A stretch of DNA of 21,484 bases, from the UHGV virus genome UHGV-0095065; one strand, given 5' to 3'. A program made the translations under genes and the position numbers. Of this stretch, positions 18,104 through 18,204 are shown piece by piece. The notes under the pieces were generated by a model. The model was not told the origin of the DNA, searched no databases, and saw nothing but the letters and a program-made list of their open reading frames with translations. The stretch is from a virus. Numbering within the stretch: position 1 is the stretch's first letter; each line of letters begins with the position of its first letter.

Positions 18104-18128
18104 CATAAAAAACCCGCCAGGCGGCGGG
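18104..18128 (-). terminator. tR'-like intrinsic terminator downstream of the late promoter
   Basis: Minus-strand CCCGCC-GCCU-GGCGGG followed by UUUUUUAUG; about 65 nt downstream of the predicted late transcription start. Confidence 0.6.
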
Positions 18129-18163
18129 TGTAAAAAGTCTTCTAACGTCAGGCATAAAACGCC

Positions 18164-18204
18164 CATCGTTAGGGCAAATTTACCACAGATTCGGGAAAAA
18201 TCAA
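18164..18204 (-). promoter_or_regulatory. Late promoter pR'-like: -35 TTGATT, 16-bp spacer, extended -10 TGgTAAATT, then promoter-proximal pause element AACGAT (qut-like region)
   Basis: Minus strand reads TTGATT-N16-TAAATT-TGCCCT-AACGATGGGCG; lambda pR' has TAAATT-TGACTC-AACGATGGG as recalled, with the same 6-nt spacing to the pause-inducing AACGAT; located immediately downstream of the Q gene stop. Confidence 0.6.

Follow-up and report, generated by a model that had tools for sequence, protein, structure and literature searches.

The window analysed here is a 21,484-nt viral genome (UHGV-0095065), and its minus strand carries, at positions 18210..19031, a 273-aa Q antiterminator gene of the Q-lambda family in the long, phi80-like form. 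Directly beyond this gene lies the region under study (18104-18204, minus strand), which we read from the Q stop codon onwards. The stop codon TAG (18212-18210) stands 5 nt before a -35 hexamer, TTGATT (18204-18199), where lambda has TTGACT and relatives have either TTGATT or TTTACT. The promoter spacer that follows, tttcccgaatctgtgg (18198-18183), is 16 nt long and ends in TGG. It leads into an extended -10 element, TGgTAAATT, with the TG at 18185-18184 and the hexamer TAAATT, identical to the lambda pR' hexamer, at 18182-18177. After a 6-nt gap, tgccct, come AACGAT (18170-18165), which is the sigma70-dependent pause element of lambda pR', and a discriminator-like GGG (18164-18162), also the same as in lambda. 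The first-pass annotation had placed these motifs correctly on the minus strand; only its description of the spacer as 16 nt followed by TGg has to be corrected, the true layout being N13 plus TGg. One base upstream of the pause element there is also a -35-element-like TTGCCC (18172-18177, minus strand; TTGACT in lambda), with only moderate conservation, as it is partly kept in close relatives. In the lambda Q loading complex, sigma region 4 is repositioned onto a -35-element-like site (PMC9388147), and TTGCCC is a candidate landing site for a region 4 repositioned in the same manner.

The arrangement is that of lambda pR', as had been proposed at first pass: a TAAATT hexamer, a 6-nt gap and AACGAT. 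Aligned to lambda, the window is the same base for base from the -10 element through GGG, barring 4 bases of the gap. In lambda pR' AACGAT occupies +1 to +6 and GGG +7 to +9, and the sigma70-dependent pause is found at +16 (PMC4005639; PMC5001585). From the identical spacing between the -10 element and AACGAT, transcription is predicted to start at 18170. A pause would be expected at +16/+17 (18153-18155, minus strand; A-U, then G at +18), both from the position in lambda and from the elemental pause rule (PMC5001585). The resemblance to the lambda system (pR'/qut/tR'; structures 7UBM, 7UBN and 4MO1) extends to the PF03589 Q protein, to a -35-like TTGnCn one base upstream of the pause element, to the position of the proposed Q-binding element (QBE) within the promoter spacer, and to a terminator that follows the promoter with the late and lysis genes beyond it.

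When up to 2 mismatches are allowed, the window contains the composite pattern TAAATT-N6-AACGATGGG a single time, where 0.07 occurrences would be expected. A generic promoter scan of the window did not list the late promoter, because just 8 of its 12 consensus positions are matched; we recognised it through the specific composite pattern and through comparison instead. By consensus the core promoter is weak, and lambda pR' itself uses the same TAAATT. Among 73 distinct initial transcribed regions, positions 1, 2 (A2) and 6 (T6) of the pause element are invariant. Positions 2 and 6 of a -10 element are those that sigma region 2 reads most stringently. A few natural alleles of the module carry an altered pause element (AATAAT, AACAAT or AACTAT), so not every copy of the module need function. 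We also looked for a paQ-like antisense promoter through the CII site TTGC-N6-TTGC, with nothing convincing inside the Q gene; at up to 1 mismatch this pattern has 17 matches in the window against 27.8 expected.

The family of the Q protein was settled by profile and alignment searches. The 273-aa protein matches Pfam PF03589 at 5.3e-52 (174 bits, cutoff 26.7) and the lambda Q structures at 1.1e-41 (phmmer, 7UBM_Q) and 1.4e-28 (4MO1), and it is 41% identical to lambda Q by tblastn. Three unrelated Q families have been described, namely Q21 (PF06530), Q-lambda (PF03589) and Q82 (PF06323) (PMC9388147). Neither PF06323 nor PF06530 is matched by the 273-aa Q at E<=10. On these profile and structure matches the protein is a lambda-family Q and not, as had been annotated at first pass, a phage-82-type one.

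With that assignment falls the puzzle that had been built on it, in which a phage-82-type Q joined to a lambda-type pause and qut site would form a heterologous combination requiring cross-specificity. With 273 aa the protein exceeds lambda Q (207 aa) in length, a possible reason for having suspected another family, but no tool supports the suspicion and the extra length is an insertion common to phi80 Q. The placement of the pause element is also that of lambda and not that of phage 82. Going by published positions and Pfam family membership, on which our comparison with phage 82 is based, the phage 82 pause element lies 9 bp further downstream, with a pause at +25 and GCC at +15-17 (PMC5001585), whereas in the window GGG follows a -10-like element whose first base is the predicted +1. 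Phage 82 is analogous in function (its promoter contains a QBE, polymerase pauses near the promoter in a sigma70-dependent way, and NusA is stimulatory), but its Q is of an unrelated family, and none of its pause-region features was found in the window. We assign the heterologous combination a vanishingly small probability. A lambda-family Q such as that of the window should be expected to have a lambda-type pause element beside it; this element is read by sigma70 and is common to the Q-lambda family, and the paradox dissolves.

Residues 1-113 of the window Q align to lambda residues 1-113 (3.9e-23) and residues 182-273 to lambda 116-207. Unlike lambda Q, the protein has between them a 68-aa insertion (residues 114-181), placed where in lambda the body meets the base of the zinc-ribbon arm, and with it a second CxxC pair (CPCC, CPEC). 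The same insertion is found in phi80 Q, in ES18 gp73 and in the 250-aa QuuQ-like proteins (alignment A1), which makes the Q proteins of lambda and P22 the short form of the family. The phi80 Q (gp17) shares the long architecture and all four CxxC motifs, with 41-42% full-length identity, and ES18 gp73 is 49% identical to the window Q. The zinc-ribbon arm of lambda Q comprises residues 114-152 with four cysteines. The corresponding arm cysteines of the window Q (C184, C187, C210 and C213), which align to lambda CRDC...CGRC, are invariant in eight family members (A1). The window residues G39, L268 and T272 are likewise invariant in these eight proteins and equivalent to lambda G39, L202 and T206, at which substitutions impair antitermination (PMC9388147), while lambda V6, C53, H56 and L58 are replaced by L, L, M and I. 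Judging from these alignments, the N-terminal torus/nozzle segment and the C-terminal contact residues appear to be present in the 273-aa Q. As for the insertion, its CPCC and CPEC motifs are encoded at 18660-18690 and 18510-18530 (minus strand) and, together with two conserved CxxCxGxG motifs, give a weak match to the DnaJ zinc-finger domain (PF00684, 29.8 bits, below cutoff); the insertion may be a second zinc ribbon.

To place the cassette in its family we compared it with annotated phage records (lambda, phi80, P22, ES18, Evi, mEp460_ev081, PHB10, Kpn_R1, Midgardsormr38 and a Stx2k phage, among others), with 16 loci from species-representative genomes and with 240 loci from viral contigs. 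One locus, L269 (mEp515), has no recognisable promoter after its Q-like gene and was left out. Essentially all collected loci present the same order: the Q stop, a -35 hexamer, a spacer of 16-18 nt, a -10 hexamer, 5-7 nt, AAYNNT with a G-rich triplet and, roughly 40-70 nt beyond, an intrinsic terminator. This layout directly after the Q stop is common to lambda, P22, phi80, ES18, the QuuQ-like 250-aa clade and the clade of the window, and comparison with lambda, phi80, P22 and over 250 related loci gives good support to the reading of the region as a lambda-pR'-like late promoter with a sigma70 pause element, a terminator close to the promoter and a late operon whose many terminators would be read through with Q. 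Complete phage genome records that contain the module are Evi, mEp460_ev081 and PHB10. The module is very common in E. coli: the 1.4-kb region finds a match in 3069 of the 5426 complete genomes, and copies in O157:H7 and O111:H8 strains are nearly identical to it.

Two of the compared phages have records that annotate exactly these features. The P22 record lists promoter, qut-like site, probable 5' end and terminator, ordered as in the window; both P22 (gene 23, P-late, t-late) and ES18 (gp73) have Q-lambda-family proteins and the same cassette as the window but belong to other spacer and C-terminal classes. For phi80, the NC_021190 annotation together with our own alignment shows that the leader is short and meets its terminator about 58 nt past the start, that the pause element, AACGCT-GGG, stands directly at the start, and that a Q site is annotated within the promoter spacer. 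The phi80 cassette differs from that of the window in its -10 hexamer (TAGATT, 7 nt from the pause element), in its spacer element, TCGCGGAAAAACTGG, and in the C-terminal recognition region of its Q.

The comparison yielded several observations on how the module varies. In the ES18-type Q clade (L108-L177) the same Q gene, spacer and -10 element are joined to three initial-transcribed/terminator modules, beginning with AACAGT, with AATGAT or with a lambda-like AACGAT leader, which points to recombination junctions between the -10 element and +1. In the clade of the window a second recombination junction is seen just past the T-run of tR'. A distant clade of the Q-lambda family (L268, L270, L271 and L272; 32-36% identity), which comprises Klebsiella phages and phage CharmingMan, has in three of its four loci (L268, L270 and L272) a -10-like TATAAC or TAAAGT at about +7..+12 followed by GCC, instead of one at +1 followed by GGG, and the placement of the pause element thus varies within the family. 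In phi80-type and ES18-type loci (L002, L024 and relatives) the stretch from the Q stop to the late promoter contains an inverted repeat that is conserved, for example TTTTCTAC...GTAGAAAA; loci of the PHB10-like type have ATCGTGAGCTA in common just upstream of the -35 hexamer. The window has just 5 nt between the Q stop and the -35 hexamer.

The spacer between the -35 and -10 hexamers is where lambda has its QBE (PMC4914094). At the same place the window carries TTCCCGAATCTGTG (18184..18197, minus strand), a conserved block that covaries with Q and that we propose as the Q-binding element. The spacer has 16 nt against 17 in lambda, which brings the proposed QBE 1 bp nearer the pause element, and the two spacers are unrelated in sequence (TTCCCGAATCTGTG in the window, TTGAATAAAATTG in lambda). 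The block is kept in loci where Q is just 58-65% identical and the flanks are unalignable. We sorted the loci by the C-terminal 62 residues of Q, that is, the body region which in lambda Q bears the helix-turn-helix, and every C-terminal class has its own spacer block: TTTCCCGAAnCTGTG in the window class (…PSTEA..ISLDTWKKSVK…), AAAGTGGCGATnTTTG in the ES18 class, TTGAATAAAnTTGGG in lambda and P22, (C/G)CGGAAAAACTGG in the phi80 class and TTCAAAAAAnATGG in the QuuQ-like class. The spacer follows the C-terminal class of Q and not its N-terminal class. ES18-type Q proteins, for instance, are about 60% identical to the window Q over the first 113 residues, yet their spacer differs.

Within the window class the correspondence reaches single positions. 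Loci with TTCCCGAA have 'LD..WKK' in Q (33 distinct protein/DNA combinations) and those with TTCCGGAA have '(R/V)A..WEK' (19 distinct combinations), with no discordant case across both pairings. The covarying spacer base is 18193 (C or G) and the Q residues fall at about 245-255. Either pairing occurs with TTGATT-type as well as TTTAC-type -35 hexamers. Such covariation of one base with two residues is the pattern expected of a direct protein-DNA contact, and so it supports 18184-18197 as the putative QBE, to which Q would bind, with C18193 as its discriminating base. In lambda the 13-bp QBE is contacted by the Q body at positions 1-4 and by the arm at positions 11-13, and this geometry can be laid on TCCCGAATCTGTG in a putative register.

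A strong terminator downstream of the late promoter, also part of the first-pass annotation, is indeed present at 18129-18107 on the minus strand. It is a tR'-like intrinsic terminator, ACCCGCC-GCCT-GGCGGGT plus a T-run (hairpin 18129-18112, T-run 18112-18107), with a 7-bp GC-rich stem and a 4-nt loop, and it lies about 32 nt past GGG, at about +42..+64. Termination here would give an RNA of about 64 nt, unlike the 194-nt 6S RNA of lambda, and by homology Q would be expected to carry the polymerase through. All relatives have a terminator at the equivalent position, often of other sequence and replaced outright between clades. That the terminator keeps its place while its sequence swaps between clades argues for selection on function.

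The terminator scan also lists, further upstream, the inverted repeat TGCCC-TAACGAT-GGGCG with TTTT (18176-18160) as terminator-like (5-bp stem, 7-nt loop, TTTTA). If this repeat served to terminate or attenuate transcription that comes in from the Q gene, AACGAT would be merely its loop. However, the 5' arm varies among close relatives in which AACGAT or AATGAT is retained (tgtcct, cgtcat and ttccac in its place), the stem is short, the T-run has only 4 residues, and AACGATGGG is kept across clades with unrelated upstream bases. We rejected the hairpin on account of its unconserved arm and regard a terminator role for this repeat as very improbable; AACGAT is best taken as the pause element.

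The short RNA expected from pR' to tR' could have a function of its own. Lambda pR' is constitutive, short pR'-tR' RNAs exist for lambda, 21, phi80, 82 and P22, and one such RNA, StxS, has a regulatory role (PMC7547250). The ~64-nt RNA might similarly be the main product of the cassette in the lysogen and act in trans as an sRNA, a role that would be additional to the cis function and compatible with it. Its predicted 66-nt fold, from +1 to the T-run (-23.2 kcal/mol, z = -3.5 against shuffles), has a hairpin at +1, an A/G- and U-rich single-stranded stretch and a terminator hairpin with a U-tail. On the other hand, the single-stranded middle is not conserved beyond the close clade, we found no target or Hfq data for this RNA, and a search of Rfam 15 returned no family at its gathering score. 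The best sub-threshold matches, suhB (22.6 against 41 bits) and isrK (16.7 against 50 bits), were rejected as a generic hairpin-plus-terminator likeness. As with StxS and the lambda 6S RNA, the window RNA is predicted to come from the late promoter and to end at the first terminator without Q, but it has no sequence relationship to them; the 258-nt precursor of StxS lies downstream of another Q. Overall, a trans-acting role seems to us unlikely.

The hairpin at the 5' end of this RNA deserves separate attention. It is predicted to span +1..+27 (18144..18170, minus strand), with AACG pairing to CGUU and GGGCGU to AUGCCU, so that the RNA copy of the pause element takes part in the stem. Complementarity between the first bases of the transcript (+1..+4/5) and a block about 20 nt downstream is found across the family. 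Transcripts starting with AACG have CGTT downstream in 59 of 64 distinct sequences; those starting with AATG have CATT in 8 of 13 and CGTT, which allows a G-U wobble, in the other 5; and two of the three AACA starts have TGTT. Compensatory states recur in other clades (loci L001-L267), where AATGA goes with TCATT and AACA with TGTT. Taking 83 distinct leaders together, 87% have at least 4 Watson-Crick pairs from +1, against 12% of shuffles. In alignment A2, 96.9% of the cells pair, and two of the four pairs have changed on both sides (C-G to U-A in 8 sequences, G-C to A-U in 2). The covariation score of 0.172 was reached by none of 500 shuffles, and slid controls gave at most 0.056, although the helix is short and its compensatory states trace to few independent events. 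Other features fit less well: +1 is paired in just 49 of the 83 minimum-energy folds, the phi80 and ES18 type-A leaders favour other folds, and four recent alleles of the window clade (AATAAT, AACAAT, AACTAT) break one pair of the hairpin. We found no description of such a hairpin in the searchable literature, which does not take in the early lambda 6S RNA papers.

We grade the 5' hairpin as a lead and not as a result. Our tentative proposal, which we see as possible without calling it probable, has two separate parts. The first is that late transcripts of the Q-lambda type may have a hairpin at their 5' end that is under selection and in which the RNA of the pause element pairs about 20 nt downstream; the second is that the window may represent an uncharacterised Q/QBE specificity class, marked by the covariation of one spacer base with two Q residues. 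If the hairpin is real, it would place an RNA-level constraint on a site that has until now been described purely as DNA. The hairpin could shield both the short RNA and the late mRNA from 5'-end-dependent decay, or serve as a stopper after the RNA has threaded through the Q nozzle.

Beyond tR', a Q-modified polymerase would have to cross a late-operon stretch (11824..17801, minus strand) with five further intrinsic terminators, at 17801-17784, 16270-16257, 15663-15646, 14682-14659 and 11853-11824. The five had already been listed at first pass, and all were recovered by our terminator scan. The gene order past tR' is a 65-aa ORF, an N6/N4 DNA methylase, three tRNAs, a 188-aa ORF, a TerB-domain gene, an STnc100 sRNA, an esterase and a DUF826 gene, and then a P21-type holin, lysozyme, Rz and the terminase genes. 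The esterase is NanS-p-like, with 648 aa and DUF1737, SASA and DUF6645 domains. This is another difference from lambda, as about 6 kb of accessory genes and the five additional terminators precede the lysis genes. The claim that every cargo and lysis gene is situated over 6 kb downstream is true of the lysis genes, with the holin ORF beginning at 11860, 6.3 kb from the predicted start; it does not hold for the methyltransferase or the tRNAs, which begin at about 0.5 kb and 1.6 kb.

Some of the accessory units have features of their own. The three tRNA genes (anticodons CAT, TCG and TCT; 16287-16538, minus strand) sit between the methylase gene and a terminator. Clusters of tRNA genes are so placed in many Stx-type and related lambdoid prophages. 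The 188-aa ORF (15646-16270, minus strand) has no Pfam match, is flanked by two near-identical terminator hairpins (CTCGCTTTTGCGGG) and has upstream of it the sole consensus-like minus-strand promoter, at 16232-16204. A promoter of its own and flanking terminators are usual for a moron, and this ORF is probably a moron-like unit, likely independent of Q. The STnc100 match (14649-14849, minus strand; 147 bits against a gathering score of 47) ends at the terminator 14682-14659 and is probably an independently expressed prophage sRNA.

These units also limit another of the first-pass statements, that expression of every downstream gene depends on Q. It stands for the lysis genes, which should need Q since they lie behind six intrinsic terminators in all, but not for the 188-aa gene, which has its own promoter-like site, nor for the STnc100 sRNA, which has its own terminator. 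Six terminators before the lysis genes are consistent with processive antitermination by Q.

Taken together, we consider it very likely that 18104-18204 (minus strand) is the late cassette (pR', Q-utilisation site and tR') of a lambdoid prophage with a Q-lambda-family Q. To the cassette elements, the Q family, the conserved layout and the Q/spacer covariation described above, homology adds how start, pause, Q binding and read-through would proceed. Sigma70 RNA polymerase would start at about 18170, and sigma region 2 would then re-bind the -10-like AACGAT(GGG) in the non-template strand, and a pause of the complex at about +16/+17 would follow. If no Q is present, the polymerase would stop at 18129-18107 and free the ~64-nt RNA. 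With Q, the helix-turn-helix body and the zinc-ribbon arm would bind the spacer element TTCCCGAATCTGTG, and Q would join the paused complex with NusA and build a nozzle at the RNA exit channel. Over 6.3 kb the polymerase so modified would pass tR' and no fewer than five more terminators and so reach the holin, lysozyme, Rz and terminase genes.

The same motifs could in principle be held by descent in an inactive relic of a defective prophage and control nothing. Many O157-type lambdoid prophages are defective, some alleles of the module have changed pause elements, and conservation inside the E. coli clade could be mere recency. In this copy, however, the Q ORF is intact and full length and all cis elements are intact. 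Recency would also have to account for a layout and a spacer block that persist across clades with 58-65% Q identity and unrelated flanks, as well as in complete phage genome records, for a terminator whose sequence is replaced while its position is kept, and for the covariation of Q with the spacer. These are signatures of selection on the family, not proof for this copy. We judge a relic distinctly unlikely and retain the working late cassette as the explanation.

The cassette, in an E. coli prophage, is one more example, ordinary and so far uncharacterised, of the late switch that textbooks describe for lambdoid phages. As originally posed the finding matters little: more than half of complete E. 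coli genomes have this module, and no puzzle across Q families is left. Its value for annotation is that it marks the expected late transcription start of a common STEC-type prophage. The covariation between the Q C-terminus and the spacer offers ready-made specificity variants for dissecting how a long-arm (phi80-like) Q reads DNA, and the covarying 5' hairpin hints that late transcripts of the Q-lambda type have a feature at the level of RNA.
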